From IMG/VR virus record IMGVR_UViG_3300029258_001212, positions 64,001-128,000 of that record: 64,000 nt of DNA, one strand, 5' to 3'. The notes under the pieces were generated by a model, which worked only from the letters and a program-made list of their open reading frames with translations, was not told the origin of the DNA and did no database searches. Of this stretch, positions 10,007 to 61,863 are shown piece by piece. The DNA comes from a virus. Made by a program: the position numbers and the translations under genes. The stretch's first letter is position 1; the number at the start of each line of letters is the position of its first letter.

Positions 10007-10074
10007 ACCCTCAAGACTCTTCTCTTCTAAGAGGGGAGATAAGGTTAATTAAGCAGAAGCAACAGGCGTGCCAA
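10007..10074. repeat. Dispersed 68-bp element, copy 1 (minus-strand sigma54 site)
   Basis: ACCCTCAAGACTCTTCTCTTCTAAGAGGGGAGATAAGGTTAATTAAGCAGAAGCAACAGGCGTGCCAA; minus strand begins TTGGCACGCCTGTTGCT. Confidence 0.9.
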
Positions 10075-10077
10075 CTC

Positions 10078-10494
10078 ATGGTAGACATCGGAACAGCGAC
10101 TCAAGCGGCCTCGAAATGAGGGACGTGCCCACTGCCCGTGCCGGCAGTACCAGCGCCCCCGGCCATCCCCCCGGCCCCGACTCCGCCGGCTGTGCCAGAG
10201 CTCCCGGAGCCACCTGGTGCCCCGGCCTCGGTGCCCGTGGCGGCGGTGCCCCCGACGCCTACGCCGGCCATCCCGACTCCGCCGGCTATCCCGCCGTTGC
10301 CCACCCCGCCGTCTATCCCGGAGCTACCGGAGCCCCCAGCGGCCCCTGGGAGCATTCCGGTGGACGCGGCACCCCCAGTACCCCCGACACCTGTTCCGGC
10401 CATTCCAGCGCCCCCTGTGGTGCCCCCAGCGCCAGCTCTGCCCGAGGTGCCAGAGGTGCCGGAGCTGCCAGGGTGCCCACTGGACGAGGAGTAG
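10078..10494 (+). CDS. Proline-rich protein bounded by CPL motifs; start uncertain (in-frame TGA at 10117)
   Basis: Frame reads MVDIGTATQAASK*GTCPLPVPAVPAPP...ELPGCPLDEE; open part is 10120-10494. Confidence 0.55.
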
Positions 10495-10498
10495 CACC

Positions 10499-10900
10499 AT
10501 GACTGAACCTGCATACATCAACGGCACTGGCGCGACGGGTATCGCGTGGCCGTGGAGTTCCACAGGCCCCCAGGCGGTCACGGGCACTGACCTGGTGGAA
10601 GCCAAGATCAGCTTGGTGATTTTCACCTTCGTGGGCGTCCACAAGATGGAGCCGACGTTCGGATCCACAGTGCTTTCCCTGGTTTTCGAGAACATCGGGC
10701 CGATCATGCGAACGGCGGCAAGTATCGAGATCCGCAACGCATTGGCCACCTGGGTTCCGGACGTGGAAGTGGACGGGGTTCGGATCCTTGACGATGAGGA
10801 CGTTGAAGGGGGCGTTATCATTGAGGTAGACTACATCTACCTTGGGCAACCCAACACCTGGAGCCAGCCGGTGACCCCGCCGGCCGGTGGAGGCGCATAG
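10499..10900 (+). CDS. Baseplate wedge gp25/GPW family protein
   Basis: HKMEPTFGS, IRNALATWVPDVEV motifs; precedes the J-like gene. Confidence 0.85.
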   Translation: MTEPAYINGTGATGIAWPWSSTGPQAVTGTDLVEAKISLVIFTFVGVHKMEPTFGSTVLSLVFENIGPIMRTAASIEIRNALATWVPDVEVDGVRILDDEDVEGGVIIEVDYIYLGQPNTWSQPVTPPAGGGA

Positions 10901-10901
10901 C

Positions 10902-13820
10902 ATGGCCGTCCTGGCGATCCCAGAATTCGATGACTATCCACTGGATCCGGAGCAGTGGTATCGCTTCTACCACACGGCCCTGGACCGGGTGTACGAGCAG
11001 ATCCTTCAGGCGGGATCCCAAGATCCGTCCACCATCGTGACGGCCACCGGAGCGGACCGCACCTCGGGCCTGGTAACCCTCACCACCACTACGGCCCACG
11101 GCCTGGCGGTGGGCGACACCATCACCGTGGCTGGGGTAACGGATCCGACCTTCGATGGCGAGTTCGTGGTGGCCAGCGTGCCCAGCACCACCAGCATCAC
11201 CTATGACCAGAGCGGCGCGGACGCCACCAGTGGATCTGGAACCATCACCCCGGCCTACCCCCGGTGGCAGGAGGTGACCACCGGCCGCGAGCTCCGCGCG
11301 GACGTGCGCGTGACCGACACCCTGGTCCGCTCCAAGTACGCCGGCCGCGACTACCAGACGTTCCTGGACGAGGGCCTGAGCTGGCTGGCCGAGAAGTACG
11401 GGGACCAGTTCACGGACTTCGTTGATTCCGATTTCGGAATCATGTTCGTGAAGTACGTGAGTTCCGCCCTGGACACCCTGAGCTGGTACATGGATAAGGA
11501 GGTGTCCGAGTGGTACTACTCGCTGATGCGCCTCCGGTCCCGGGCGGAGGAGCTCGCCCGGATGAGCGCCTACAAGCCCAGGAGCGCCACGGCCTGCACG
11601 GCGGACCTGACTCTGACCCTGGACGATGGGCCCTACGCTTTCGACATTACGGTGCCTGAGCGATTCCAGTTCCAGGGCCCGAACAGCCTGATCTTCGAGA
11701 TCACTCAGGACGTGACGTTCGCCGCGGGCGAGACCACCAAGACGGGCGTGCCGGCCACCCAGGGCCAGACCCTTCGGGACAGCGTGATCTCGGATGCGGC
11801 CCCTAACTTCCAGCTTCCGCTCACCAGCATCCTCGAGGACACCCAGGTGGCCCAGGATTCGGTGGAGGTGTACGTGGACGGGCAGCCATGGGAAGAGGTG
11901 GACTTCCTTCCGTTTGCCAAGGAGGACAAGGTGGAGGTGCTCTACGGGGCGGATCCTCCCTTCGTTCTCTTCGGTGACGGCGTGAGCGGCAACATCCCGG
12001 ATGCGGGCCTCACGTGCCTGGCGATCTACCGGGTGACCTACGGCAAGGCGGGCCTCGCGGCCACGGCCGGCACCATCGAACAGCCAGTGATCCCCCTGGT
12101 GGCCAACTCGCAGAGCATCGCCATCACGGCGAACAACCCCTCGGGGGCGCGCGGGGGCGTGGACCTGGAAACCCTCGAGGAGATCGTCAAGACGGCGCCA
12201 GCCTACTTCAAGACGGCGGACCGCGGCACCACCACGCAGGACATGACCACCCTGGCGGACTCCTACTCGAGCGGCACCTACGGCACCGTGGCCAAGGGGA
12301 AGGCGCACATCGTTCGGGGGATCTCGGATGACCTACAGCTCCAGGCCCTCCTGGCGTCCATTGACGGGCACGCCACGGACCTGGAGACGGCCATGACGGC
12401 CATCTCCACCTCGGTGGACGCTATCGCCACGGCGCGCGGCCTGGCGGCCACGCAGCTCGCGGCCATCACTACGGCCCAGGGCAACATCGACACCAACGTG
12501 ACGGCGATCAAGGGTGGTGTCACGCTTGCCACCGAGCACCTCGAGACGGCCAAGGAGGGGCTCGAGAACATCCCCTATCAACAGGTGTTCGCCCAGGCGG
12601 ATGGCGCCACGAAGGTCTGGAACAACGTCCAGCTCCAGAAAGGGGACATTTACCCCGGGACGGTGTTCCTGTGGGTGGACGACCTGAACGAAGAAACGAG
12701 CGTCAACGATGGCAACTGTGATGTGCAGCCCGGGCGAGTGCGCGTGGGATCTGCCATCTTCGAGGCCACGGATGTGGGGCGCCAGATCAAGATCGGTGAC
12801 CAGTTCCGAACCATCACGAAGTACACCAACACCACCGAGGTGACCTACTCCGGCTCGCTGATCTCCGGAACCAACCTCGAGGTGATCCTGTATGAGCAGA
12901 GCGTGTACGCGCGAGACGATGGCGCTGGCAACCTGTCCGGGCCTGGCGTCGTGTCCGGCGCTATCACCTACTCCACTGGCCTGGTGGACAGCCTCGAGCT
13001 CGCCGTGGAGCCCCCCGGAACCGGCCAGTATGGATCGAACATCTTGATCCAGTTCGGGGCCACCCAGACCGTGGCCACCCAGCCCATCGACAACGCGATC
13101 ACCGAGCTCGACGCCATCGACACCACGGCGGACTCCATCTCGGACGAGACGGGGGACATTTCCGACGCGGTAACCGAGGCCACCACGCAGCTCGTGGCCA
13201 TCGCCACCCAGGAAACGACCATCGACACGGCCATGGACACGGTGCTCGCCATCCCGGCCAGCATCGAAGACGACGTGGAGGAGCTCGAGGCGTACCTAGA
13301 CGCCAACCTGAGCGCGGACTGCAAGGCGAACATCGTGATGGTCCAGGTGCTGGTGGTGGACGAAAACGGCTTCTACGCCGCGCCCAGCCAGACCCTCCTC
13401 ACGGCTGTCCAGGAGTACCTGGACGAGCGCAATGTGCTCCCCACCACCGTGACAGCCGTGAACGGCTACTACAACCTGGTGGCCGTGAACATGCTGGTCC
13501 AGGTGAGCATCCTGAAGCCGTACCTCTACTCCAAACAGCTCCCCTCAATCCAGGCGGCCATCGACGCGGAGCTCAAGGGACGCGACTACGGTGTGAACCT
13601 GAACCGAAGCGACTACTACAACCGGGTGGTGCCGGACAAGACGACTGGCATTGGTGGAGTGGAAGGCGTTGACTACGCCAACATCACGATCACAGCCACC
13701 AGCTACCCGGATCCGGCCAACACCGGAACGCCACCGAGCGTGGACGCAAACGGAAACCTGGTGATCCCGGACACGCTGATCATCACCAGGGGAACCATCA
13801 CGTATGAGGAGATCGTCTAA
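10902..13820 (+). CDS. Baseplate wedge J/gp6-like protein with large insertions
   Basis: RDYQTF, DFVDSDFG, YKPRSATA, FGDGVSGNIP, GGVDLETLEEI, DRGTTTQD, GVEGVDYANI motifs. Confidence 0.88.
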   Translation: MAVLAIPEFDDYPLDPEQWYRFYHTALDRVYEQILQAGSQDPSTIVTATGADRTSGLVTLTTTTAHGLAVGDTITVAGVTDPTFDGEFVVASVPSTTSITYDQSGADATSGSGTITPAYPRWQEVTTGRELRADVRVTDTLVRSKYAGRDYQTFLDEGLSWLAEKYGDQFTDFVDSDFGIMFVKYVSSALDTLSWYMDKEVSEWYYSLMRLRSRAEELARMSAYKPRSATACTADLTLTLDDGPYAFDITVPERFQFQGPNSLIFEITQDVTFAAGETTKTGVPATQGQTLRDSVISDAAPNFQLPLTSILEDTQVAQDSVEVYVDGQPWEEVDFLPFAKEDKVEVLYGADPPFVLFGDGVSGNIPDAGLTCLAIYRVTYGKAGLAATAGTIEQPVIPLVANSQSIAITANNPSGARGGVDLETLEEIVKTAPAYFKTADRGTTTQDMTTLADSYSSGTYGTVAKGKAHIVRGISDDLQLQALLASIDGHATDLETAMTAISTSVDAIATARGLAATQLAAITTAQGNIDTNVTAIKGGVTLATEHLETAKEGLENIPYQQVFAQADGATKVWNNVQLQKGDIYPGTVFLWVDDLNEETSVNDGNCDVQPGRVRVGSAIFEATDVGRQIKIGDQFRTITKYTNTTEVTYSGSLISGTNLEVILYEQSVYARDDGAGNLSGPGVVSGAITYSTGLVDSLELAVEPPGTGQYGSNILIQFGATQTVATQPIDNAITELDAIDTTADSISDETGDISDAVTEATTQLVAIATQETTIDTAMDTVLAIPASIEDDVEELEAYLDANLSADCKANIVMVQVLVVDENGFYAAPSQTLLTAVQEYLDERNVLPTTVTAVNGYYNLVAVNMLVQVSILKPYLYSKQLPSIQAAIDAELKGRDYGVNLNRSDYYNRVVPDKTTGIGGVEGVDYANITITATSYPDPANTGTPPSVDANGNLVIPDTLIITRGTITYEEIV

Positions 13821-14606
13821 ATGCCCACCACCAGCCGCACCAGCCTGAAGTACCCGGCGCGCGGCCAGGAGCCGTGGTTCGATCTGTTTGAAGCGATGCT
13901 CAACCAGCTCGACGCCATGCTGTACGCCCATCGTGAGGACCGCAATATCCTCATCGTGGGGGGCGGAACGCTCTCCTGGGATGCCACCTCCAACACCCTG
14001 AGCTGGAACGCGCCCATCGTGCTCAATAGCCCCCAAAAGGGCTTCCAGGAAAGCGTGGCGGCGGGGAGCATCGAAATCGCGGAGAGCCAGGTGCTCTACG
14101 TGGACGTGTCGCGCAACCCGGGGAGCAACATCGCTCTCACAGCCAGGCGCGCCGCCACGGTGCCCAACACCGATGACGGTCTCCTCTTGTGCTACCGCTA
14201 CGGCACCTCGCTGTGGTGGCGCAATGGGCTCCGCATGGAGGACACCTACTCGGGGCCCCTGTACCCGGCTGGTGGAGGCGGCGGTGGCGGGATCTCCGGA
14301 TTCGACCGACAGACCGTGGCCGTGGCGACAACCGGTGATGCGTGGGTTGGTGGCGGAGGTGGCACAGATACGGCTAATGCCCAGGGAAGCCTGGCTGGGC
14401 CAATCCAAGGCCCTGGCGCCACGGCGCCGCTATATCCACCCGATGGCGTGGACGTTCACCTGAACAACATCCTGGTGCGGTGGGCTGCGGCCCCGTCTGG
14501 GATCAACGAATGGACCTGGGTGACCACCGGTTCGCCGGCCCCAGTGATCCAATTCGGCGCCGGCCTTACGGCCGGAGACGTAGTGGAAGTCAAGTTCCCC
14601 TACTAG
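13821..14606 (+). CDS. Virion/baseplate structural protein
   Basis: LKYPARGQEPW N-terminus typical of fibre-anchor proteins; Gly linker; structural operon. Confidence 0.6.
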   Translation: MPTTSRTSLKYPARGQEPWFDLFEAMLNQLDAMLYAHREDRNILIVGGGTLSWDATSNTLSWNAPIVLNSPQKGFQESVAAGSIEIAESQVLYVDVSRNPGSNIALTARRAATVPNTDDGLLLCYRYGTSLWWRNGLRMEDTYSGPLYPAGGGGGGGISGFDRQTVAVATTGDAWVGGGGGTDTANAQGSLAGPIQGPGATAPLYPPDGVDVHLNNILVRWAAAPSGINEWTWVTTGSPAPVIQFGAGLTAGDVVEVKFPY

Positions 14607-14615
14607 GAGCAGACC

Positions 14616-17321
14616 ATGAGCGACGGACTCCCCAGAGCGGCACAATTCAGCCAGACGGAACCCATCGCCAACTTGGCGGGCGATCTGTCCGGGGACAACA
14701 CGGCGGCCGTGGTGGCAAAGCTCCGCGGCTATGCCATTGGCACCGGTGCGCCGAGCTCGGACGGCGATGTGCTCCAGTGGAACAGCTCGGCCAGCGAGTA
14801 CCAGCCTGGGCAGCTCGACCCAGCGGTAGGCGGAGACCTAAGCGGCACCATTGCGTCTGCAACGGTGGTGGCCATTCGCGGCGGCGGTGTGACCACTGAT
14901 GCCCGTGCAGACGGCAACCTCATGGAGTGGGATGACGGTGGCTCCGAGTGGGGCTACGTGAGCCCTGGCGGAGATCTGAGCGGCAAGATTGGCGCGGCCA
15001 CGGTGACTGGGCTACAAGGGCGAGACGTGGCCAACACGGCGCCCACGGACGGCCAGGCGCTAGTCTGGTCCGCGGGCAACTCGAGGTGGCAGCCCGGAGC
15101 CGGCGGCGGTGGGGCCTCGAGCTGGAATGCGCTGTACGCTGCCAGCAAGACGATGACTATCGACGGGGCGGTGCTCCAGTGGGAACAGGACATTGCTACC
15201 GGCTCTGGCTTCCGGGTGTTCCGAGACCAGGCCACCAGCGATGCTCCGCTCATGGTGGTGGAAGCTGTCAATGCGGCAGACGCGCAAGCGGCACTGAAGG
15301 TATCCGGCTTGCTCGCCCTGAATGCTGTTGGCAAGGTCACCCAGAGCATGACGGACAGCGGTACGGCTACGTTCGATGCCTACAAACTGTCCTACCAGCC
15401 AGGGGCTCTGGCGGCGGCCACCTGGGCCTACGGCATGGCAGTGGAGGCAGATGGATCGAATCTCACCGAGGCGGACTCTGCCGTGTTCGGGTACAGGGCC
15501 ACGGCTACTTCGCTCGGGTCTGGTGTTGGCGTGGGCTACTACGCGGACGACACGTGGACCCTGGGCATGTATCTCAAGTCCGCACTGAACATCGAATCGT
15601 CTGCGAGCAATCCCGCATTCCAGGCGAGTCACACCGGTGACGTGAAAGCCGGCGTGTTTTCGTCTGGCGGTCTGGCAACGGGAACACAGCCCGTTCTTTC
15701 TGTTTCCGGACAGAACACCGTGGCAACCCATACCGGCAAGACATTCGAGATCCTCACAGTGTCTGCCGAGGGCCAAGCCAACGGTGGCGCCAACGATGAC
15801 TATGACTTCATCGGTGTCAACTTCGGGTACACCGAAGCTGGTTCGGTCACGGCTCTCACGAAGGCGATGTACGTGCAGAATTCGTGGGACTGGTCTCTGT
15901 GGGCCTACGCGCCGTCATTCTGGTCGCTGACTGGAACGACGCCTTTTGCCGAGTACGCAGGGAATCCGCAAGCTGGGTCCGGGGGGAACATCAGCACAGA
16001 TAACGGCGCCACGGCGGACATGCTTCGCGTGGTGGTGGGTGGTAGCACCAGGTGGATTCCGGCATACAGCGCCACGGCGCTCGCTGGCTCCATCTCGAGC
16101 TGGGATGGGATGTACGCCGCAGACCCGAACAGCAATGTGCTCACGGTGTCTGGGGCAAGTGACCCATTCGAGATTAACCAGACTTCCAACAGTGGCAACG
16201 CATTCTACGTTCACAGAAGCAAGGCGAGTGGAAGCGAGACGGCTCCGATTGCCTGGTTCAAGCAACTCAACAACGGGACCCACACCGAGTACGTGGTGAA
16301 GGTCGAGGCGGATGACGGGTTCAATGAGATCCCGCTTTTCCAGTGCAAGGGCCAGTACGGCAACGGCTACCTCCAGGTGAGCACGCATGGCAAGGTGGAG
16401 ATCCAGCAAGCCAGCGGGCGCTACTTGGACCTGACTGGTTACAGCCGACTTCGTTGCGCCCAGATCGATTACAACAGCGCGGCCGGGCATTCGGTCAAGA
16501 TCCAAGGCAACGGCCAGGCGCTCGAGGTGGGCGCCGACACGGCGGCTTCCACGAAGATCACCGGTACGCTCCTGGACGTGAACGTGCGAACCGACATTAC
16601 CGCGTCCACCAGCGGTGGAACCCCGGCACTGTACGTGCGCCAGGACAGCACCGGCGACATTTTGCAGCTTATGGACGGCACCACCGAGCGGTGGGCGTGC
16701 GCGCCTGATGGCGCGGTGGACATGAGCGCGAATTCAGCTAACCCCGGCCTGACCGCTGACCAGGAGGGGGCTGGTGACATTTTCGACGCGCGCCTGAGCG
16801 GCACGTCCAAGTTCGCCGTCAAGAACAACGGGCGCATCACGCAACAGGTCACAGGGATCACCACCACCACCGAGGTGCTCCGGACCGAAGGCCAGTCCGG
16901 CAACCTGGGCAGCGGGCAGGGCCTGGTCGGACACAAGGTGTCGTTGGCCGGGGCCACGGACGATGCGACTTCTCAGATCTACGGTGTGTTCGTGGAGCTC
17001 ACCGGTGGAAGTGCAGCCACCACCAAGCGCGGGTTCTACGCGGACTCGAGCTGGGAGTACGGCCTTTACACCCTGAGCCCCGGCTATGTGAAGCAGAGTA
17101 GCGCCACTGGCGCCGTGGTGGCCCTCACCGTGGACCAGGCGGACAACGATGTATCCTTCATGGACTTCATCGGCTCCACGGCTGCGGACAAGACAAACAA
17201 CATCTCGAGTGGCGTAGGAACCCCGGACGGCAACGCGCCGGCCAGTGGGACCTGGACGCTGTGGCGGATGCTCAAGATCGACTTGGGCGGCACGGCCGGA
17301 TGGCTGGCCGTGTGGCAGTAG
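14616..17321 (+). CDS. Tail fibre protein
   Basis: 901 aa, GDLSG shaft repeats, APTDGQALVW motif, duplicated distal module. Confidence 0.8.
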   Translation: MSDGLPRAAQFSQTEPIANLAGDLSGDNTAAVVAKLRGYAIGTGAPSSDGDVLQWNSSASEYQPGQLDPAVGGDLSGTIASATVVAIRGGGVTTDARADGNLMEWDDGGSEWGYVSPGGDLSGKIGAATVTGLQGRDVANTAPTDGQALVWSAGNSRWQPGAGGGGASSWNALYAASKTMTIDGAVLQWEQDIATGSGFRVFRDQATSDAPLMVVEAVNAADAQAALKVSGLLALNAVGKVTQSMTDSGTATFDAYKLSYQPGALAAATWAYGMAVEADGSNLTEADSAVFGYRATATSLGSGVGVGYYADDTWTLGMYLKSALNIESSASNPAFQASHTGDVKAGVFSSGGLATGTQPVLSVSGQNTVATHTGKTFEILTVSAEGQANGGANDDYDFIGVNFGYTEAGSVTALTKAMYVQNSWDWSLWAYAPSFWSLTGTTPFAEYAGNPQAGSGGNISTDNGATADMLRVVVGGSTRWIPAYSATALAGSISSWDGMYAADPNSNVLTVSGASDPFEINQTSNSGNAFYVHRSKASGSETAPIAWFKQLNNGTHTEYVVKVEADDGFNEIPLFQCKGQYGNGYLQVSTHGKVEIQQASGRYLDLTGYSRLRCAQIDYNSAAGHSVKIQGNGQALEVGADTAASTKITGTLLDVNVRTDITASTSGGTPALYVRQDSTGDILQLMDGTTERWACAPDGAVDMSANSANPGLTADQEGAGDIFDARLSGTSKFAVKNNGRITQQVTGITTTTEVLRTEGQSGNLGSGQGLVGHKVSLAGATDDATSQIYGVFVELTGGSAATTKRGFYADSSWEYGLYTLSPGYVKQSSATGAVVALTVDQADNDVSFMDFIGSTAADKTNNISSGVGTPDGNAPASGTWTLWRMLKIDLGGTAGWLAVWQ

Positions 17322-17348
17322 GCCAACGATTGAACAAGGAGGATTGGA

Positions 17349-17843
17349 ATGGCCCGGGACAGCAAGAAGACTAGAGCGAAGCGGACGGCGAAGCGCGCCG
17401 GGAAAGCGAAGTCCAAGGACGACTTGAAGCGAGAGGCGGTGCTCGCCCAGGTGCGGGAGCGCAAGTACCGCGTGAGCGAGGTGGAGCTCCTCAAGCTCCA
17501 GAAGCTCAAGTACCAAGGTGAGGCCATCGGCACGAAGCTCCAGGCGGCCCAGGAGAAGCTGGCCGAGCTCCAGGTCAAGGCCCAGACGGCCAGCGCCCGG
17601 TTCCAGGCAGAGGTGAGCCGTGTGTTCAAGGCCCACGGCTTCGAGGAGTGGTTCAGTATCGATCTGTCGGACGAGGAGAGCGCCGGACTGGTCACCGAGA
17701 ACATGCAGCTCAAGAAGCAGCTCGAGGCGGCCCAGGACGCGGCAAGCAAGGAGAGCGAGCCCGAGGGAGACAAGGACACCAAGGCGCCCGAGGAACCCCA
17801 GGAGGAACCGGCTCCGGCTGCGGAGGAGGCATCGGGCGATTGA
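17349..17843 (+). CDS. Coiled-coil protein, possible fibre assembly chaperone
   Basis: Follows the fibre gene; good RBS; helical, acidic tail. Confidence 0.5.
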   Translation: MARDSKKTRAKRTAKRAGKAKSKDDLKREAVLAQVRERKYRVSEVELLKLQKLKYQGEAIGTKLQAAQEKLAELQVKAQTASARFQAEVSRVFKAHGFEEWFSIDLSDEESAGLVTENMQLKKQLEAAQDAASKESEPEGDKDTKAPEEPQEEPAPAAEEASGD

Positions 17844-17845
17844 GG

Positions 17846-17913
17846 ACCCTCAAGACTCTTATCTCCATAAGGGGGAGATAAGGTTAATTAAGCAGAAGCA
17901 AAGGACGTGCCAA
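17846..17913. repeat. Dispersed element, copy 2
   Basis: ACCCTCAAGACTCTTATCTCCATAAGGGGGAGATAAGGTTAATTAAGCAGAAGCAAAGGACGTGCCAA. Confidence 0.9.
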
Positions 17914-17917
17914 CATC

Positions 17918-18910
17918 ATGGCTCGGTATGGATTCGGAAATCGTGCGTTCGGGACGACCCCCTTCGGGGAGAGCGACTGGTGCAAGATCGTCCTGTACGA
18001 TGAGCTCCCGGGTGATGTGCGTCAGCAGGATGTGGATGCCGGGGGCCCGTACCTGAAGTTCGTGGAGGCAATGTGCCCCAGCTTCACCTGGCTCAAGCGG
18101 CACCTGGACCGGTTCAAGTACATCACCAATCCGAGGGAGATCCGTGAGGATCTCCTCCTGTACCTCGGGGAGAATTTCGGGATCACCGTGGACTTGGCCG
18201 AACCCCTCGGTTACCAGCGGATGCGAGTGGGCCTCGCTGCCAGGTGGAACATCATCAAAGGCACCCTCGAGTCCTACGTGGTGCTGTGCAGGGTTCACGG
18301 CTTCGAGGTGGACGTTCATCCGCTCTGGTGGGATGGGATCAAGTACCTTACGACGCCTCCGGTGGTGGGCGGGGAAAGTCCGACCTACCAGCGCACGGTG
18401 TCCGTCGATACCCAGTACAAGATCTGGCTCCAGTGCGCGCCAGCGGAGCCGAGTTCGGTGGTGATCACCATCGCTGGCAACACGATCACCGATGACGGTG
18501 ACGGCAAGCTCCTGGTGGGAGTCACCGAGGTGGGCACGATTGACTACGGCTGGGGCTACGCGGACCTGACGCTGACTGGGGTGGTCACCGGAGCCCCGAA
18601 GGCCACCTATCAGAGCGTGGTGGGCGGGTGCGTGGAGACGTGCCGGAAGTGCAAGACGCACAGGATCAGACTCGACATTACCACCGGGACCATCGGTGGC
18701 CAGAGCGAGCTCACCATTGCGGATGCCTTCAAGCGCATGTGGCGGAAGATCGGGCTGGACACTGGCGATGGCGTGGTGCCGATCCATGTGGAGCTCGAGT
18801 ACATCGTGGCGGAGGACACGGCCGTGGCCAGCATCGGGCATCGCTATGACATTCTGGCGGACAGCGAGGTGTCCGCTGATTCCGGTTTCCGGGCAGAGGT
18901 GGTTTCCTGA
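17918..18910 (+). CDS. Baseplate wedge protein, P2 gpI-like
   Basis: LLLYLGENFG, IKGTLESY motifs; DDGDG module; Cys cluster. Confidence 0.7.
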   Translation: MARYGFGNRAFGTTPFGESDWCKIVLYDELPGDVRQQDVDAGGPYLKFVEAMCPSFTWLKRHLDRFKYITNPREIREDLLLYLGENFGITVDLAEPLGYQRMRVGLAARWNIIKGTLESYVVLCRVHGFEVDVHPLWWDGIKYLTTPPVVGGESPTYQRTVSVDTQYKIWLQCAPAEPSSVVITIAGNTITDDGDGKLLVGVTEVGTIDYGWGYADLTLTGVVTGAPKATYQSVVGGCVETCRKCKTHRIRLDITTGTIGGQSELTIADAFKRMWRKIGLDTGDGVVPIHVELEYIVAEDTAVASIGHRYDILADSEVSADSGFRAEVVS

Positions 18911-19872
18911 TGGATCTGACTGCGGTGAGCTGCAACGGCGGAGACGACGAATTCGTCCAGTACATCTTCCGGTTGCTTTCGGATGCGGACATTGCCTACT
19001 TCAAGCTGGGCGAGGGTGGCTTCGATCTGTCCGCGGTCCGCACCGAGATCGCCGGGTACGGCTCTGGGGCTACCACCTACAGCGGCACCCTCGAGCGGCT
19101 CCCTGTGGGTCGCAATGCCGTCACCATCACTGCGGATCCGCTTGGTTCCGCACAGGTGGTCACAGACGATGGTGCGGGGAACCTGTCCGGCGCTGGCGGA
19201 AGCGGGACGATCAATTACAAGACGGGCGAGTGGGAGGTGACGTTCAACGTCGCGGTGAGCGCTGGGGACCCTATCCAGGCGGACTACCAGTACCACGGCA
19301 CCTTGAGCTCCGAGCAGTCCAGCGACTTCGGGCTGGGCGACGGCACCAAAGGACCCTACTACCATGACCTGGAGAACCTCCCCGTGGCGGAGGGCACGCT
19401 CACAGTGAACGAGGAGGGGGGCCTGAGCCTCACTGATGACGGCAACGGCAACCTGGTGGGAGATGGCAGCGGCACGGTCAACTATGAGACTGGTGAAGTG
19501 TTCGCCTTGTTCTCTGGGGTGGTGGCGCTCCACAGCCGAATCACGGCCACCTACAAGTACGATGGAGCCCCGAAGGCACCAGACCCGACCCTCACGGATC
19601 TGGAATCCGAGGGAGACCCGAACCTCTACACGTTCCAGCGCGATTTCGAGGAAGGCGAAATCACGTTCGTGGAGACCACACGGGGGCGGATCCGCTGCAC
19701 CATCTACCTGGACCTGTGGGAAGGGATCGATGATGGGAACGGCTACACGCCGTACCTGTTTGAAGGAGGACTATTCAGCTCCAACGATGAGATGGCCGTC
19801 TACTTCACCTACGCGAAGATCAGGAAGACCGGCTCCACGCGCATCGACTTCGATGTGGACACGGTGCTGTAG
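18910..19872 (+). CDS. Baseplate/tail collar protein (paralog A)
   Basis: YFKLGEGG N-terminus and EGGLFSSNDEMAVYFTY C-terminus (fibre-collar-like); two DDGxG modules. Confidence 0.65.
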   Translation: MDLTAVSCNGGDDEFVQYIFRLLSDADIAYFKLGEGGFDLSAVRTEIAGYGSGATTYSGTLERLPVGRNAVTITADPLGSAQVVTDDGAGNLSGAGGSGTINYKTGEWEVTFNVAVSAGDPIQADYQYHGTLSSEQSSDFGLGDGTKGPYYHDLENLPVAEGTLTVNEEGGLSLTDDGNGNLVGDGSGTVNYETGEVFALFSGVVALHSRITATYKYDGAPKAPDPTLTDLESEGDPNLYTFQRDFEEGEITFVETTRGRIRCTIYLDLWEGIDDGNGYTPYLFEGGLFSSNDEMAVYFTYAKIRKTGSTRIDFDVDTVL

Positions 19873-19881
19873 GGGTTCGCC

Positions 19882-20826
19882 ATGGATAAAACTTGGACCA
19901 TGTACCGGAATCAGCTTTTTACTCCCAACTTCTGGTTCTACGATTGGATGGCGTTCCTGATCCCGATCTTGGAGTCCAACGGCTGGACGCTGATCGGCTG
20001 GGGCGAGGGCGGGTTCAGTGGTGGGGGCGCCTACTACTGGGATCGCAGCGGGGTCACAACGCCGTTCTCTACCAGCCAGACGAATTGCTGGGCATGTCTC
20101 CAGGCGCCGGACAACGGTGACGGCAAGACGCGCCCTGAGATCGTGTGGCAGGAGCCGTGGTCCACCAACGATCTGCGGATGTGGGTGCGGCACGAAGGCG
20201 GCTATACCAATGCTGGGATCGATTCGCACATCCGTCCTACGGCCGGGGACGGCGGCGAGATGGGGCGCACGTCCACCGATCTGGAATCCAACTCCGGAAC
20301 CGCTGCGAGTAGGTGGACGTTCTGCGTGGCAAGCGACGGGTCCTACATCGCCTACAGCTCCACCAGGAACAACGCATCCGCCATGTCTGCCTTCGTGCGT
20401 TGCATGGACGTGGAGGAGCTCGACCTGTATCCCTACGCTTGCTTCCACCGGAGTTCCTACAACTACCAGATGATCGATATTTGGCAGTTTTCCTACCAGA
20501 ACGGCAACGCGAGCATCATGGCGTACCACCCGACAGCGGGGGACATTTGGGGCAACAACGGGGCCAGTGCGGACGGGTACGGGATCGCCAAGCTCTACTG
20601 CGGAGGTGGCGATATTCGGCCTGGCATAGATCCAGTGACCGGTGAGCCGACGATGTACGGAATGCACGTCATGAGCTGGGGATCTTATGGTCACGTGAAA
20701 GGGCGCCTTCCGGATATGTTCTACTCTGGGATGGCCAACAACGACCGGGTGAACAGCGGCGAGTATATCCAGTGCGGCCACCTGATGCTGCCATGGGGTT
20801 CTGATTCGGAGGTTGTGGTCCCATGA
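19882..20826 (+). CDS. Virion structural protein (paralog B)
   Basis: LESNGWTLIG; C-terminal DPVTGEP...HVKGRLPD, shared with the next gene. Confidence 0.6.
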   Translation: MDKTWTMYRNQLFTPNFWFYDWMAFLIPILESNGWTLIGWGEGGFSGGGAYYWDRSGVTTPFSTSQTNCWACLQAPDNGDGKTRPEIVWQEPWSTNDLRMWVRHEGGYTNAGIDSHIRPTAGDGGEMGRTSTDLESNSGTAASRWTFCVASDGSYIAYSSTRNNASAMSAFVRCMDVEELDLYPYACFHRSSYNYQMIDIWQFSYQNGNASIMAYHPTAGDIWGNNGASADGYGIAKLYCGGGDIRPGIDPVTGEPTMYGMHVMSWGSYGHVKGRLPDMFYSGMANNDRVNSGEYIQCGHLMLPWGSDSEVVVP

Positions 20827-21737: not shown

Positions 21738-21740
21738 GAT

Positions 21741-22775: not shown

Positions 22776-22777
22776 CC

Positions 22778-25837: not shown

Positions 25838-25840
25838 GCC

Positions 25841-26509: not shown

Positions 26510-26522
26510 CCTGCCATCGGAG

Positions 26523-26591
26523 ACCCTCAAGACTCTTCTCTTCTAAGAGGGGAGATAGGGTATAGAGAAACAGAAGCAACAGGTGTGCCAA
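26523..26591. repeat. Dispersed element, copy 3 (divergent centre)
   Basis: ACCCTCAAGACTCTTCTCTTCTAAGAGGGGAGATAGGGTATAGAGAAACAGAAGCAACAGGTGTGCCAA. Confidence 0.88.
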
Positions 26592-26592
26592 G

Positions 26593-26808
26593 ATGAGAAG
26601 CCAACCAGATGATGATGCGAGCGCAGTCCCCGTGGAGACCGTCCAGGGCGAGGACAATTTCGTTCTGGTGACAACTCCTGTAAGATATAGGCAGCTCTCC
26701 GATGCAGCGGTTCGCCTCGGGATGAGTGTTCAGGACTTTGTGGGACACACGCTCGAGAGCGCAGTACAGGCCGTAGCCGAAGGGCGGCGGCCATGGGAAA
26801 GGACGTGA
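26593..26808 (+). CDS. Small RHH-like DNA-binding protein
   Basis: NFVLVT strand, YRQLSDAAVRLG helix, MSVQDFVGHTLE helix. Confidence 0.5.
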   Translation: MRSQPDDDASAVPVETVQGEDNFVLVTTPVRYRQLSDAAVRLGMSVQDFVGHTLESAVQAVAEGRRPWERT

Positions 26809-26812
26809 GACA

Positions 26813-28986: not shown

Positions 28987-29048
28987 GATGCCCGAGATCC
29001 AAATCAAGATTCGAATCCCAGCAAAGGGAAACCCGATTGGAGGCGAAG

Positions 29049-33807: not shown

Positions 33808-34413
33808 ATGAGCACCAGCTACGATTACAGCATCAGCGGCGACTTCCCGAACGGGCAAGTGAACCCGTCCGTTTTGTACGCAGAGATCAACGCCGAATCA
33901 GCTATCACGGTCCCATTGGAGGCGATCAACGTAAACGGCGACGTGTGCAGTGTCGTCTTCGAGGGTCCGTTGTCCCCCACAGAAAAAACCGCACTGGACG
34001 ACCTGGTTGCCAATCACACTGGTGAGGAAACCACGAGCGATGTGCAGTACGCCTATTCGGAAAACGAGCAGGGCACCACCGGGCAGACCTGGATGGAGAA
34101 GCTGGAGCTTCAGTCCGACCCGCTGGGTGGCGGCGAGTACCTGGTGACGTGGTACTGCGAGATCAAGCTCCTAAGCGGCACCCCGAACACGGGTGCCTTT
34201 GCCCAGTTCACCCTGAACGGCACAGAGCGCGGCGCCGACGTGAATGACCTGAATCAGTGGAAGGCGTTCAGTGGTTCGGCCATCGCCCCGTTCCCCGCCG
34301 GTGGTGAGCCGGTGCTGGCCATCAACTGGCGCCGCTTAGGTGGCTCTGATGAGGCCCTCATCAGGCGGGCGCGCTTGTCCATCAGTCCAGTCGAGAAAGG
34401 GAATGGCGAATAG
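33808..34413 (+). CDS. Virion structural protein (chimeric domains)
   Basis: N-domain like 32732, C-domain like 31653. Confidence 0.6.
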   Translation: MSTSYDYSISGDFPNGQVNPSVLYAEINAESAITVPLEAINVNGDVCSVVFEGPLSPTEKTALDDLVANHTGEETTSDVQYAYSENEQGTTGQTWMEKLELQSDPLGGGEYLVTWYCEIKLLSGTPNTGAFAQFTLNGTERGADVNDLNQWKAFSGSAIAPFPAGGEPVLAINWRRLGGSDEALIRRARLSISPVEKGNGE

Positions 34414-34416
34414 GAC

Positions 34417-34485
34417 ACCCTCTTGACTCTTATTCCCCTACAAGGGGAGATAAGGTTAATTAAGAAGAAGCAATGAGCGTGCCAA
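34417..34485. repeat. Dispersed element, copy 4 (overlaps next start codon)
   Basis: ACCCTCTTGACTCTTATTCCCCTACAAGGGGAGATAAGGTTAATTAAGAAGAAGCAATGAGCGTGCCAA. Confidence 0.9.
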
Positions 34486-35012
34486 TCTCGGAAGACCAAC
34501 GGACCTGGGTGATCTTGAGCACCACCGAGACCTTCCTGGGAAGGGCCATCAGGTGGTTCACACGCGCGCCAAGGGGCGCGAGCCATGCCTCGGTGAGCTA
34601 CTACTCCGGCAAGCTGGGCCAGCGCCTGGTACTCGAGGCCAGCGCCTACGGATACCGGGTACTCCCTTGGGCGAAGTGGAAGAACATGGACCCCGGCAAG
34701 CGCGTGTGGGTGTACGCGGAGGCGCGCATCAGTCTCCTGAAGGGGCTCCAGCACGTGGCGGCCGAGCTCGGGCGCCCCTACGATTACAAGCTGATGCTCT
34801 GGCACGCCCTTCGGTTCTGGTTCAAGCGATGGCTCAAGAAGCCGTGGCGCAACCCAAGGCGGTGGGCGTGCCAGGAGGCGACAATCATCATGCTCCAGGC
34901 GTCTGGCGTGGGTGGATCTTTCCGCGTTGACCCCGAGGCCACAACACCTGAGCAGCTCCGCGTGTGGCTGTCCGGCTGCCCGGAGCTCGAGCAGATTGAG
35001 GTGCCCCTGTGA
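34473..35012 (+). CDS. Permuted papain-like amidase (YiiX/YebB-like NlpC/P60)
   Basis: RAIRWFT..SHA, LGRPYDY, RWACQE, TTPEQL; His before Cys (permuted order). Confidence 0.75.
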   Translation: MSVPISEDQRTWVILSTTETFLGRAIRWFTRAPRGASHASVSYYSGKLGQRLVLEASAYGYRVLPWAKWKNMDPGKRVWVYAEARISLLKGLQHVAAELGRPYDYKLMLWHALRFWFKRWLKKPWRNPRRWACQEATIIMLQASGVGGSFRVDPEATTPEQLRVWLSGCPELEQIEVPL

Positions 35013-40285: not shown

Positions 40286-40382
40286 TGACCATCTGGAAGT
40301 TTTCTTCTACATGGTCAGGAAGTTTTCTTCTACATGGTCAGGAAGTTTTCTTCTACATGGTCAGGAAGTTTTCTTCCTGACC
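40286..40382. repeat. 23-bp tandem repeat array (iteron-like, candidate origin)
   Basis: GGAAGTTTTCTTCTACATGGTCA at 40295, 40318, 40341 plus a partial copy at 40364; inverted ends. Confidence 0.85.
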
Positions 40383-51945: not shown

Positions 51946-53136
51946 ATGGCCAAGAAGTCGCCACCCAGTGCCCTGGCCACGCTCGCCCAGAGCATCGTTA
52001 AGAACCACGGTGTCGGAACGCTGATGACGGCGGACCGCGTGGCACACGTGTTACTCCCCCGGGTGAGCTCCGGGATCTTCGAGCTGGACAAGGCGCTGGG
52101 CGGCGGCTGGCCGGCCGGGCGCGTGTCCATGGTCTACGGGTGGGAGTCCACCGGGAAGACCAGCCTGTTTGTCCGCGCCGTGGCGAATGCCCAGCGCCTG
52201 TGCGGCACGTGCTTCCAACCGGCGAAGCTGGTGAAGGGGGAGGTGGAGACGATCAACCCCAACACCGGCGAGGTAGAGATCCGGGAGTCTATGATCGTGG
52301 GCGAGTGCGCGTGCGGGAAGCCCAAGTCCATTCGGACGGCCTGGGTGGACCAGGAGGGCACCTGGGACGGGGAGTGGGCCAGGCGCCTCGGGGTATTCGA
52401 GGAGCGGGTGATTCTGTCGCGCCCCCTGTACTCCGAGCAGACGGTGGACGTGATTGACGCCATCATGGAGCTCGGGGCGTCGGACATTATCGTGCTGGAC
52501 AGCATCGGTGCGATGGCCCCCTCCAAGGAGCTCGAGGACAGCGCGGTGGACAGTATCAACAACCCCGGGCTCCAGGCGCGCATCATGAACAGCGCCATCC
52601 GCAAGTGGATCAGCCAGCTCATCGCCAAGATGCGGGACGCCATGCGGGACAACATCGAACCGGCCCAGGTGGTGCCCACCCTGTGGCTGGTGAACCAGCT
52701 CCGCCTGAAGATCGGGGTGGCCTTCGGGAACCCCGAGGTAGTGACCGGCGGGCGCGGTCAGGGATTCGCTACGAGCTGCGAGGTTCGCACCAAGACGGTG
52801 AAGTACACTCAGAACGACAAGGGGGACGAGACCTACAAGGTGCAGCTCGGATTCACCGTCAACAAGAACAAGACGGCCCCGGCCAAGCGCAAGGGCGTCT
52901 ACACCCTCTGCATGAGTCCCCAGGGGCCATTCCAGCTCGGGGACGTGATGGACCAGGGACACGTGCTCAACTGGGGGCTCAAGGTGGGGCTGGTCACCGA
53001 GGTGTCCGCCAAGAAGCTCGGCTACAACGGCGAGGAGTACCTGGGCAAAAAGGGGCTGATCGAACACTGGGCAGCGCATCCGGATGAGTACGAGGAAGCG
53101 AAGCGGATCATCATGGCGCAGATCACTGCCCAGTGA
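51946..53136 (+). CDS. recA: RecA/UvsX recombinase
   Basis: SSGIFELDKALGGGWPAGR, GWESTGKT, IVLDSIGAM, NQLRLKIG, KNKTAP. Confidence 0.92.
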   Translation: MAKKSPPSALATLAQSIVKNHGVGTLMTADRVAHVLLPRVSSGIFELDKALGGGWPAGRVSMVYGWESTGKTSLFVRAVANAQRLCGTCFQPAKLVKGEVETINPNTGEVEIRESMIVGECACGKPKSIRTAWVDQEGTWDGEWARRLGVFEERVILSRPLYSEQTVDVIDAIMELGASDIIVLDSIGAMAPSKELEDSAVDSINNPGLQARIMNSAIRKWISQLIAKMRDAMRDNIEPAQVVPTLWLVNQLRLKIGVAFGNPEVVTGGRGQGFATSCEVRTKTVKYTQNDKGDETYKVQLGFTVNKNKTAPAKRKGVYTLCMSPQGPFQLGDVMDQGHVLNWGLKVGLVTEVSAKKLGYNGEEYLGKKGLIEHWAAHPDEYEEAKRIIMAQITAQ

Positions 53137-53138
53137 AC

Positions 53139-53206
53139 ACCCTCTTGACTCTTACTCCTCAAGAGGGGAGATAAGGTTAATTAAGCAGAAGCAATGAGCG
53201 TGCCAA
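53139..53206. repeat. Dispersed element, copy 5
   Basis: ACCCTCTTGACTCTTACTCCTCAAGAGGGGAGATAAGGTTAATTAAGCAGAAGCAATGAGCGTGCCAA. Confidence 0.9.
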
Positions 53207-53207
53207 C

Positions 53208-54057: not shown

Positions 54058-54062
54058 CAGCG

Positions 54063-60281: not shown

Positions 60282-60284
60282 ACC

Positions 60285-60623
60285 ATGATGCCCAACCCCG
60301 CCAACACCTGGAACGGTATCGGCCGCGTGGCCCAGGATATTCGCTTCGGTCGGACCGGAGAGGGACAGCGCGTGTGCTCGTTCCAGGTGACTACCACCAG
60401 CCGGGGAGACCGGCTCACCTGGGTGCGGATCAACGTCTACGATCAGGAGCTGGTGAAGTACGTCAAGCGCCGGATCGTGAAGGGGGCGACAGTGCAGGTG
60501 GAGGGCGAGCTGATGAACCGCAACAAGGGCGGACGCAATGGTCCCCAGCTCACCGAGGTGAGGGCCTTTTCAATCGAACCGACAGACGATGAGGGAGCCG
60601 ATGGTAGCCGCAACCGAGAATGA
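60285..60623 (+). CDS. ssb: Single-stranded DNA-binding protein (bacterial SSB OB-fold)
   Basis: GIGRVAQD, TWVRINVY, KGATVQVEGEL. Confidence 0.8.
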   Translation: MMPNPANTWNGIGRVAQDIRFGRTGEGQRVCSFQVTTTSRGDRLTWVRINVYDQELVKYVKRRIVKGATVQVEGELMNRNKGGRNGPQLTEVRAFSIEPTDDEGADGSRNRE

Positions 60624-61371
60624 CCTGCAAGTAGTGGACGGCCAGGCGCCGATCACTGATGACGTGAACGAAATCCGTGAGCACCTACAGGAGCTCAAGG
60701 GGCGCTTCACCCGTACCTACTTCGAGTTCGGGGAGGTGCTCCAGAGGGCTTACGAGCTCGGGGCCCATAAGACATGGGGATTCCCCACTTGGAAGGAGTA
60801 CGTGGAGGAGGAGCTCGGCATGTCCGAGCGCCGTTGCCAGTACCTCCTGTCCATTCACAAGTGGTTCAACAAGGTGCTCAAGGACCACCCGCACGTGCGC
60901 CAGCGCGTGGAGCACCTGGGCTGGTCGAAGGTCCGGCTCCTGGTGGGCGTGGTGGACGAGACCAACGTGGACGAGTGGGTGGCCCGGGCGGAGAAGATGA
61001 CCCTGGCGGCGCTCCAGGAGTTTATCAAGGAGCTCAAGGCCGGCAAGACACCGAGCGATGAAACCGAGAAGCTCACCACGCTTTCGATCAAGCTCTACCC
61101 CGAGCAGGTGGCCAACGTGGAGGACGCCCTGGAGCTCGCCAAGGAGATCGCGGAGAGCGACAAGCGCGGCCACCTGATCGATCTGATCTGCACGACGTTC
61201 AAGGCGGACCACGTGTTCTCTTCGAGCCCAGGCACGAAGATGAGCGAGCTCTACATCGCCAAGATCGAGAAGATCATGGGGGTGCGCCTGGTGGTGGTGG
61301 ACGAGGCATCCCGCAAGGTCAAGTACGGCCTGGATGTGCTCGAGCGACTGGCGGAGGAACCGAAGGAGTAA
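60601..61371 (+). CDS. DUF3102-like helical DNA-binding protein
   Basis: FEFGEVL..WGFPTWKEYVEEELGMSERRCQYL. Confidence 0.6.
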   Translation: MVAATENDLQVVDGQAPITDDVNEIREHLQELKGRFTRTYFEFGEVLQRAYELGAHKTWGFPTWKEYVEEELGMSERRCQYLLSIHKWFNKVLKDHPHVRQRVEHLGWSKVRLLVGVVDETNVDEWVARAEKMTLAALQEFIKELKAGKTPSDETEKLTTLSIKLYPEQVANVEDALELAKEIAESDKRGHLIDLICTTFKADHVFSSSPGTKMSELYIAKIEKIMGVRLVVVDEASRKVKYGLDVLERLAEEPKE

Positions 61372-61422
61372 GAGGAGCCGGTGCCCATCCTGTGCAGCAT
61401 TGGAGCTGCAAAGGAGGCAGAG

Positions 61423-61725
61423 ATGGATAGTCTTAGCGTTGGATGCCAGGTGATCTACACGGATGAACACTTCAAGGACCACCACGCCCTGGTGACGGCC
61501 ATCTGGGCAGCGTCACATGAGCACCTGGTTCAGGGGAGCGACGAGGTGAAACACACCTGCGTGAACCTGGTCTACGTGTCCGGTGACGACACCAAGGACG
61601 ATCCCTACGGACGGCAGATCGAACGGAACACATCGGTGGTCCATTCGAGCGTGCAGCCGGCGGGGGGTGCGTGCTGGAGGTTCCCCAGTGAGCCACGGCC
61701 CAAGATGGGCGTGGTGAGCAAGTAG
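61423..61725 (+). CDS. Hypothetical protein
   Basis: AAGGAGG RBS; SVGCQVIY..ALVTAIW..VNL..WRFP. Confidence 0.6.
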   Translation: MDSLSVGCQVIYTDEHFKDHHALVTAIWAASHEHLVQGSDEVKHTCVNLVYVSGDDTKDDPYGRQIERNTSVVHSSVQPAGGACWRFPSEPRPKMGVVSK

Positions 61726-61794
61726 CCCGGCGGCCGGTGACTGGTGCCGAAGAGGTGCCTGCCCCACTGGTTCCAATGCTGCACAGGATGGGAC

Positions 61795-61863
61795 ACCCTC
61801 TTGACTCTTTTCTCCTAGTAAGGGTAGATAAGGTTAAGTAAGCAGAAGCAACGTCTGTGCCAA
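61795..61863. repeat. Dispersed element, copy 6
   Basis: ACCCTCTTGACTCTTTTCTCCTAGTAAGGGTAGATAAGGTTAAGTAAGCAGAAGCAACGTCTGTGCCAA. Confidence 0.9.

Follow-up and report, generated by a model that had tools for sequence, protein, structure and literature searches.

A phage genome of 153,540 bp carries exactly 12 copies of an AT-rich cassette of about 80 bp that contains a -24/-12 site of the sigma-54 (RpoN) type, and eight of these copies are directed against the genes of the phage itself. The window analysed here, a stretch of 64,000 nucleotides, covers bases 64001-128000 of this virus record and contains six of the backward copies. The sequence-only reading had offered three roles for them: roadblock, decoy for sigma-54, or promoter of antisense RNA. 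We favour the last, on indirect grounds. On sequence comparison, we give about an even chance to the reading that the elements are mobile sigma-54 promoter cassettes similar to the PeSLs of T4-type phages, and that those facing backward either produce antisense RNA or disturb read-through.

In this model, the six elements are inverted members of the 12-copy family, a set of mobile regulatory cassettes. Each cassette is laid out like a host sigma-54 promoter, followed by an AT-rich region for melting and start, a hairpin close to the 5' end, and a GAGGG ribosome site. Forward copies would supply the gene that follows with a portable promoter, a leader, and a ribosome site. We infer that the backward copies most likely remain binding sites of host sigma-54 RNA polymerase. 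Opening of the complex by an activator would then give rise to a short antisense RNA, untranslated and headed by a hairpin, that reaches into the upstream gene at its 3' end. Such firing may weaken read-through in the long one-directional operons, or insulate against it, either by collision or by RNA pairing.

Copy number, orientation, and motif

An exact search of the 64-kb window for TTGGCAC-N5-TTGCT gave six matches, all on the minus strand. The chance expectation is 0, and none of 100 dinucleotide shuffles yielded a match. The six places and the six N5 spacers are those given by the sequence-only reading. All copies (6/6) fit the RpoN consensus TGGCAC-N5-TTGCW without a mismatch, and in each the GG and GC doublets are separated by exactly 10 bp. 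The copies can be aligned over about 70-80 bp with invariant boxes. The length had been put at 68-69 bp; nhmmer extends the similarity to about 78-80 bp, starting about 10 bp further left. As described earlier, the elements are AT-rich and lie at gene boundaries: their GC content is 0.44-0.49 vs about 0.63 for the genome, and each occupies the interval from one + strand gene to the next. The copies of the window are as follows.

Copy 1, 9997..10075, minus strand: backward; boxes 10058-10074, predicted start ~10047, hairpin ~10017-10038
Copy 2, 17835..17914, minus strand: backward; boxes 17897-17913, predicted start ~17886, hairpin ~17854-17885
Copy 3, 26511..26592, minus strand: backward; boxes 26575-26591, predicted start ~26564
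Copy 4, 34406..34486, minus strand: backward; boxes 34469-34485, predicted start ~34458
Copy 5, 53127..53207, minus strand: backward; boxes 53190-53206, predicted start ~53179
Copy 6, 61786..61864, minus strand: backward; boxes 61847-61863, predicted start ~61836

The start near 10047 that had been predicted for copy 1 is arithmetically correct. This copy follows a gpV-like baseplate spike gene (9058-9999, +) and precedes further baseplate genes. Copy 2 lies between a 164-aa gene (17349-17843, +) and a P2 gpI-like gene (17918-18910, +). Copy 3 is the most diverged in the window, with the start region TTTCTCTATA in place of TTAATTAA. Copy 4 marks the end of the tail-fibre block, copy 5 adjoins the 3' end of a UvsX-like recombinase gene (51946-53136, +), and copy 6 is upstream of a ParB-like gene (61897-62790, +). 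In copies 1-5, the upstream stop codon is about 50-60 nt from the predicted start.

A scan was extended to the full genome and to relatives. It returned the 12 copies and found cassettes in a sibling phage, which is about 90% identical, and in a second relative, about 76% identical (aa). All virus genes are on the + strand. The common orientation noted earlier holds inside the window (6/6); genome-wide, eight copies run against the genes and four with them, and all four forward copies are outside the window. The consensus is exact in 11 of the 12 copies, and the remaining copy reads TGGCAT.

Cassette architecture

In the four forward copies, a stop codon is followed in turn by the -24/-12 boxes, the AT-rich stretch of the start, a hairpin, the GAGGG ribosome site, and ATG. 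The cassette thus spans the distance from the upstream stop codon to the start codon, ending in GAGGG-N6/7-ATG. This layout indicates that the family serves mRNAs. The earlier statement that the sites do not serve mRNAs therefore fails for the family, since GAGGG stands 6-7 nt before ATG in all four forward copies. The eight backward copies, including the six in the window, are entire cassettes inverted between abutting genes, with the ribosome-site end, useless in that direction, still attached.

In agreement with the sequence-only reading, no minus-strand gene follows the six window copies, nor does any terminator. No minus-strand genes or terminators were found behind the backward copies; the lack of a terminator there weighs against the favoured reading. 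The one candidate region, near genome 28.5-28.9 kb, was rejected, being occupied by + strand ORFs. The + strand of the window has a G>C skew, so that antisense RNAs would be C-rich and G-poor. RNAs of this composition are good Rho substrates, and the antisense RNAs would hence be short.

A hairpin is found in 12/12 copies. The terminator scan detected no intrinsic terminator at the elements, and no U-tract follows the hairpin, whose tail is GGUUAAUUAAG in the present phage and purine-rich in the ~76% relative. In the present phage, the hairpin folds better on the anti-sigma-54 strand, which is the gene-sense strand of the backward copies. In a G.U-pair test, this strand bias was equal in forward and backward copies and reversed in the ~76% relative. 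The strand test therefore gives no verdict.

These features bear on the possibility that the likeness to RpoN sites is coincidental. The block could be recognised by another factor, or the element could function on the + strand, whether as a hairpin that terminates or processes transcripts or as a sigma-70 promoter with a long spacer (MerR-type). We regard this as very unlikely. It would account for positions 17-40, which are as conserved as the boxes and exceed what sigma-54 needs, and for the better folding on the gene-sense strand of backward copies; a host lacking rpoN, which would also weigh against the favoured reading, would fit it as well. However, the motif is a 12-base consensus with exact spacing, and its sole variable island is the spacer that is not contacted. 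The consensus is also kept in the relative in which the rest of the block has diverged. A terminator or processing site accords poorly with the missing U-tract, the purine-rich tail in the relative, and a strand bias that is the same in forward copies and reversed in the relative. An Rfam search of the cassette matched 0 families. A MerR-type or other + strand sigma-70 promoter in the cassette was rejected, as its hexamers are not conserved: only about half of the copies carry the TTGACT "-35", and its presence switches between the phage and its sibling. A search of 8000-27000 found no + strand sigma-70-like site.

Conservation and mobility among relatives

Between orthologous copies of the phage and the sibling, 3/132 box positions changed, compared with 10/60 in N5 and 4/168 at positions 17-30 (Fisher p = 6e-4 for boxes vs N5). 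Across the 24 copies of the two genomes, GG and GC never vary, and N5 takes nine forms. The cassette flanks are 86-98% identical to those of the sibling. The ~76% relative shows two perfect boxes, with N5 = GCCCC and GGGCT, both in backward cassettes. There, about half of the -11..+12 positions differ, and the hairpin is kept with a different stem sequence. The start region is AT-rich in the two lineages alike, a feature more in keeping with melting than with binding alone. Invariant boxes around a variable spacer, reported earlier for the window, thus hold between copies and between related phages. The sequence-only reading had named loss of GG-N10-GC in related phages as evidence against its proposal; in the ~76% relative, the boxes are perfect.

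The cassettes are mobile, being gained and lost between abutting operon genes among relatives. Copy 2 is missing from the 77%, 59%, and 56% relatives, in which the flanking genes abut, separated by 2 to 31 nt. Neither copy 2 nor the forward copy at genome 53362 occurs in 74-77% relatives. One additional backward copy occurs only in the ~76% relative. That copy 2 splits baseplate genes that abut in relatives, with no obvious regulatory need, weighs against the favoured reading. At the two junctions comparable with empty sites, no terminal inverted repeats or target-site duplication were found by eye. Furthermore, the hairpin, AA/TT blocks, and some N5 spacers have been exchanged between copies when the sibling and the phage are compared; in the sibling's copy 4, the hairpin and AA/TT block are replaced by the variant of another copy. 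These block swaps indicate gene conversion.

Mobility gives rise to another reading, not among the three offered earlier, in which the backward copies are neutral passengers. Selected function would reside in the forward copies only, and the backward copies would be the same mobile cassette in the wrong orientation. They would be tolerated because a sigma-54 promoter is silent without its activator, and gene conversion from other copies would keep them looking intact. We consider this unlikely. It is consistent with the inversion of entire cassettes including the ribosome-site end, with the gains and losses between abutting genes, and with the exchanged blocks. In two sibling backward copies, GAGGG has become GAGTG, and it is intact in all forward copies. 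The 8:4 split is not different from chance; its compatibility with random insertion is a point against the favoured reading, as is the capacity of gene conversion to keep backward boxes intact without selection. Nevertheless, the boxes are intact in 16/16 backward copies of the two genomes despite flanks that differ by about 10%, while N5 drifts within the same 17 bp. In the ~76% relative, 3/3 visible copies are backward, and two of them occupy shared sites, homologous to genome 49657 and window copy 1; the latter site also carries a backward copy in the sibling. The boxes visible in two of these copies are both perfect despite the diverged interior. The one comparable forward site (genome 53362) is missing from this relative.

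The GenBank phage collection gave 0 megablast matches for a 9.7-kb piece and 0 blastn matches for the cassette, and the best protein-search identity of UvsX was about 31%. Pattern scans of IMG/VR and JGI metagenomes returned the sibling contig only, besides unrelated single chance matches. The sole prophage-relative match, a 125-kb contig binned with an Ignavibacteriaceae MAG, is 52-56% identical and contains 0 cassettes.

Polymerase, activator, and host

No gene for a single-subunit RNA polymerase (ssRNAP) or a sigma-70-family factor was detected in the phage, which therefore appears to depend on the host polymerase. Neither an RpoN gene nor an RpoN DNA-binding domain was found in the phage. 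A GAFTGA-type activator had been proposed as something to look for in the rest of the genome; no enhancer-binding protein was found in the phage, and no GAFTGA motif on the coding strand. A weak match to PF00158 was rejected as an activator, its ORF being ComM/Mg-chelatase-like. Within 240 bp upstream, no k-mer was shared beyond random-segment controls, and hence no common enhancer was found. A host activator, or an activator without a DNA-binding domain, may open the cassettes. Lacking an activator or shared enhancer, the favoured reading does not explain how the promoter is opened. A search for endolysin look-alikes hints loosely at a host in Pseudomonadota or Acidobacteriota. CcrM (GANTC) was rejected as a clue to the host, since GANTC is not depleted (459 observed vs about 499 expected).

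The sigma-54 closed complex is stable. A complex that docks and is never opened could block or insulate gene junctions head-on, or the sites could soak up host sigma-54 as genome copies multiply, a reading that we hold to be quite unlikely. It agrees with the failure to find an activator gene or shared enhancer, with the conservation of all boxes in both orientations, and with the density of perfect sigma-54 sites, one per ~13 kb in the phage vs two in an unrelated 3.8-Mb MAG. In Yersinia, RpoN binding is described in the cited passage as having both "productive and silent effects" (PMC7657599). However, about 20 bp would be enough for docking, yet the AT-rich start region and the 5'-proximal hairpin are kept in both lineages, and in the forward copies a ribosome site stands at the proper distance from an ATG; these two features speak for real transcripts. 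Essential downstream genes would also be starved if a roadblock worked efficiently in the baseplate operon.

If the antisense promoters are active, they would be a novel means by which a phage times or insulates its long one-directional operons through the enhancer-dependent host polymerase, and they would raise the question of what opens them without a recognisable activator. It is doubtful, though conceivable, that the backward sites form a selected and so far undescribed device (a switchable head-on insulator or terminator, or a sponge) whose orientation is itself selected in several large uncultured phage lineages. As a short, self-contained unit with universal boxes, the cassette lends itself to assays of binding, firing, and roadblock in standard rpoN+ and rpoN- strains.

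Comparison with known systems

Enhancer-dependent sigma-54 (-24/-12) promoters of bacteria include glnAp2 and pspA. The sigma-54 consensus and genome-wide sites have been described (PMC4591121, PMC3844500). The phage cassettes share with bacterial promoters the exact TGGCAC-N5-TTGCW, the fixed GG-N10-GC, variation limited to the spacer, and a predicted start that falls in an AT-rich stretch 12 nt beyond the GC. They differ in that no enhancer or activator was found for them, and in that 12 near-identical copies exist in one phage, two thirds of which face away from any gene.

The lambda oop RNA is a phage cis-antisense RNA. In PAK_P3, early antisense RNAs cover structural genes (PMC4933390), and LUZ19-like phages have a conserved backward promoter (PMC10914365). 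As in the present phage, backward phage promoters are proposed to silence or insulate neighbouring genes. Unlike the cassettes, they are not described as sigma-54-driven in the cited passages (PMC4933390, PMC10914365), and none is a repeated cassette. Their transcripts are documented; for the cassettes, antisense transcripts are predicted from a layout that fits.

In E. coli, sigma-54 sites of the antisense and intragenic kinds occur widely (PMC4591121). According to the cited passages, well-conserved RpoN sites of E. coli and Yersinia are antisense to a neighbouring gene, as here, and the roles proposed for antisense sites are antisense RNA or transcriptional interference (PMC4591121, PMC7657599). 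As described there, these chromosomal sites are scattered, unrelated, and of varied quality, in contrast to copies of one mobile cassette.

The statement that no phage system of this layout had been described is qualified by two partial precedents, the sigma-54-dependent phage YuA and the T4-type PeSL cassettes. In the cited passages, phage use of sigma-54 is called rare, with YuA as the sole example (PMC5053324, PMC10914365). Development of this Pseudomonas phage depends on host sigma-54 (Ceyssens 2008, cited in PMC5053324), and its sigma-54-like promoter P015 has been re-mapped (PMC10914365). YuA uses host RpoN promoters, as the present phage would. For YuA, these passages name one sigma-54-like promoter region and report no repeated cassette or backward copies (PMC5053324, PMC10914365). 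In the present phage, a dozen RpoN sites are carried by a mobile cassette; the majority point against the phage's own genes, an orientation that persists in relatives.

PeSLs (promoter-early stem-loop) are mobile regulatory cassettes of T4-type phages (PMC2839356, PMC4122927). As far as the cited passages describe them, both kinds of element are small repeated composites of a host-type promoter and a stem-loop that fill the space from the upstream stop codon to the downstream ribosome site and start, and in both cases the elements are associated with insertions and deletions that distinguish close relatives. PeSLs are described as sigma-70 early promoters with terminator-active stem-loops, clustered in hyperplastic regions upstream of the genes they serve (PMC2839356, PMC4122927). 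The present cassettes, in contrast to that description, are of the sigma-54 type, have a stem-loop without a U-tract, lie in core virion and replication blocks, and are inverted in 8/12 cases.

Twelve predicted sigma-54 cassettes

An exact search of the window for TTGGCAC-N5-TTGCT, the sigma-54 (RpoN) motif with a 5-nt spacer (N5) between its -24 and -12 boxes, gave six matches, all on the minus strand, reproducing the sites and spacers listed in the sequence-only reading. No dinucleotide-shuffled window contained a match (0/100). The six regions can be aligned over 70-80 bp with invariant boxes, and their GC content (0.44-0.49 vs ~0.63 for the genome) bears out their description as AT-rich elements in a GC-rich genome. 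A profile built from the copies found exactly 12 cassettes of ~80 bp each, and no weaker matches, in the whole virus record (IMG/VR; 153,540 bp with a 144-bp terminal repeat; "genome" coordinates below). The window covers bases 64001-128000 of this record. The cassette is a real, non-random and conserved feature. Copies are called forward or backward when the motif faces with or against the + strand genes, respectively.

Cassette copies in the genome (8 backward, 4 forward)
Window 9997-10075, minus strand: copy 1, backward
Window 17835-17914, minus strand: copy 2, backward
Window 26511-26592, minus strand: copy 3, backward
Window 34406-34486, minus strand: copy 4, backward
Window 53127-53207, minus strand: copy 5, backward
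Window 61786-61864, minus strand: copy 6, backward
Genome 28970 and 49657, minus strand: two further backward copies
Genome 1032, 38368, 53362 and 139350, + strand: four forward copies

The single orientation noted earlier therefore holds inside the window (6/6) but not genome-wide (8 minus, 4 plus); it is due to where the window falls in the genome.

Cassette architecture

In the sigma-54 direction, the cassette consists of the boxes TTGGCAC-N5-TTGC, a start region, a hairpin and AGAGTC(AA/TT)GAGGGT(G/C)TCC. The start region, TTCT(G/T)CTTAATTAACC, is almost invariant, and the predicted start lies 12 nt beyond the GC, within TTAATTAA. The hairpin has a fixed left arm, CTTATCTC, and a variable loop and right arm. 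Among the four forward copies, the stop codon of the upstream gene precedes the motif by 2-3 nt in three and by 10 nt in the fourth, at 38368. The cassettes at 1032 and 139350 end in GAGGG-N6/7-ATG, and the one at 53362 is followed by the downstream gene's own GGAGGA ribosome site. The forward cassette thus appears to be a complete unit of promoter, leader and ribosome site, and the earlier proposal that the sites do not serve mRNAs would fail for the family, which is predicted to serve mRNAs elsewhere in the genome.

The backward copies are this whole unit inverted. Their ribosome-site end abuts the stop codon of the upstream gene, and in four of them only 1-4 nt separate the TTGGCAC end from what appears to be the next start codon on the + strand. 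A ribosome site at normal spacing is absent from several genes 3' of backward cassettes. A 13-codon mini-ORF (window 10078-10119) begins 3 nt beyond copy 1, with a stop codon that shares bases with the following ATG (ATGA).

We give about even odds to the reading that these are sigma-54 cassettes whose backward copies act via antisense transcription or interference. Silent docking sites, such as a roadblock or decoy, would need only ~20 bp and seem improbable: the start region is AT-rich, the 5'-proximal hairpin has been kept and the forward ribosome site is well spaced, all of which argues for transcription over mere docking. For this reason antisense firing is ranked higher.

Genes around the cassettes

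Essentially all genes lie on the + strand (GC3-based gene call), as do all long ORFs flanking the window cassettes. Flanking products include a tape-measure protein, a gpV-like spike, a P2 gpI-like protein, helicases, a primase and a UvsX-like recombinase. A ParB-like partition or nuclease gene (window 61897-62790; PHROG E ~2e-24) lies directly downstream of copy 6. No minus-strand gene was found behind any backward copy, as the sequence-only reading had stated; the sole candidate region, at about genome 28.5-28.9 kb, is taken up by + strand ORFs. There is likewise no minus-strand terminator behind the backward copies, no U-tract after the hairpin on either strand and no Rfam match to the cassette. 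The strand bias of the hairpin does not discriminate among the readings. TTGACT was rejected as a -35 element, since about half of the copies lack it and it flips between the phage and its ~90%-identical sibling.

Elsewhere, 3.6 perfect copies of a 23-bp unit stand in tandem (window 40295-40376). They fill part of a low-GC gap immediately 5' of a phrog_6077-like gene and a helicase/primase block, and look like the iterons of a replication origin.

Conservation and mobility

The sibling contig (153,114 bp) carries all 12 cassettes at the same places and in the same orientations, with flanks 86-98% identical. Over the gap-free first 30 positions of orthologous copies, differences number 3/132 in the boxes, 10/60 in the spacer and 4/168 in the start region (boxes vs spacer, Fisher p = 6e-4). 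GG and GC are invariant in all 24 copies of the two phages. In some cases a whole block has been exchanged for the variant of another copy, a sign of gene conversion, and the cassettes evolve in concert within a genome.

A related phage at ~76% amino-acid identity, represented by short-read assemblies in which the repeats interrupt the contigs, shows three copies. All are backward: two at sites homologous to those of window copy 1 and the copy at genome 49657, and one ahead of tail genes, back-to-back with a sigma-70-like promoter (TTGACA-N18-TATAAC), where the phage has no cassette. Both visible boxes are perfect, with GG-N10-GC kept, while roughly half of the 24 positions that follow have changed, and a hairpin with a different stem sequence is kept at the same distance. 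The boxes are thus the part of the cassette that stays fixed. An exact-spacing 12-base consensus, variable only in the non-contacted spacer, outlasts interior divergence here; the sites are for this reason taken as probable sigma-54 sites. A function unrelated to sigma-54 is quite unlikely, as little other than sigma-54 recognition would readily account for such box conservation.

Forward copy 53362 is absent from the ~76% relative (the gap there is 14 nt), and window copy 2 from 77%, 59% and 56% relatives, in which two baseplate genes abut at that point. In the regions covered, the ~52% relatives carry no cassettes. This presence and absence shows the cassettes to be mobile over evolutionary time. 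Backward copies might be neutral insertions: they separate baseplate genes that in relatives lie end to end, chance could account for the 8:4 split, and gene conversion could preserve the boxes. We regard this as unlikely, if less so than the other alternatives, since all three copies seen in the ~76% relative are backward, two of them at common sites.

Activator, host and other regulatory sites

No RpoN DNA-binding domain, single-subunit RNA polymerase or sigma-70-family domain was found in the genome. The suggested search for a GAFTGA-type activator came back empty on the coding strand. The sole PF00158 match is a 303-aa ORF with a RAPHY...LLLDE pattern, which we take to be ComM/Mg-chelatase-like. 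This AAA+ protein (genome ~32608-33519) has the Walker A GQPGSGR, with Arg replacing Lys, and lacks GAFTGA; its match to PF00158 (Sigma54_activat) is weak. K-mers shared among the 240-bp regions upstream of all 12 copies do not exceed those of random segments, so the copies have no common enhancer.

The phage has no tRNA genes. Endolysin look-alikes point loosely to a host in Pseudomonadota or Acidobacteriota. The genome collection holds a single, distant relative, a 52-56% match to the tail module on the 125-kb NCBI contig CAZLJI010000001.1, which is binned with an Ignavibacteriaceae MAG; the strict sigma-54 site occurs 0 times on this contig and twice in the whole 3.8-Mb assembly.

Ordinary sigma-70-like promoters are present elsewhere on the + strand, so the cassettes would be a second promoter class. 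A 10-bp palindrome, GATTCGAATC, possibly the target of a phage regulator, has eight exact occurrences, mostly in apparent intergenic gaps (rough gene call).

Occurrences of the palindrome
Window 747-756 and 29008-29017
Genome 18218, 18265, 20336, 21886, 42803 and 43118

Some adjoin sigma-70-like promoters (e.g., TTGACA-N17-TATAAC, window ~775-805); in the ~76% relative the palindrome is downstream of the same promoter, and in the phage upstream. Two operator-like inverted repeats, GGTGTCC...GGACAC, lie in early-looking intergenic regions (genome 21904-21924 and 29021-29050), one of them ~35 nt past backward cassette 28970 and overlapping a sigma-70-like promoter.

Comparison with known systems

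The earlier observation stands; its interpretation lacked the forward, mRNA-serving copies and the mobility. We found no published description of a repeated sigma-54 cassette, or of backward sigma-54 sites, in phages. Reports call reliance on sigma-54 rare among phages, with YuA as the known case (PMC5053324, PMC10914365). E. coli has RpoN sites in antisense orientation (PMC4591121), PAK_P3 makes antisense RNAs over its structural genes (PMC4933390), and a backward promoter is conserved in LUZ19-like phages (PMC10914365). In architecture, the phage cassette comes closest to the PeSL cassettes of T4-type phages, mobile, indel-linked units of stop codon, host promoter, stem-loop, ribosome site and start; it differs from them in sigma class, terminator activity and orientation (PMC2839356, PMC4122927). 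The cassette would thus combine a sigma-54 promoter with a mobile promoter and stem-loop cassette, each kind being known separately.
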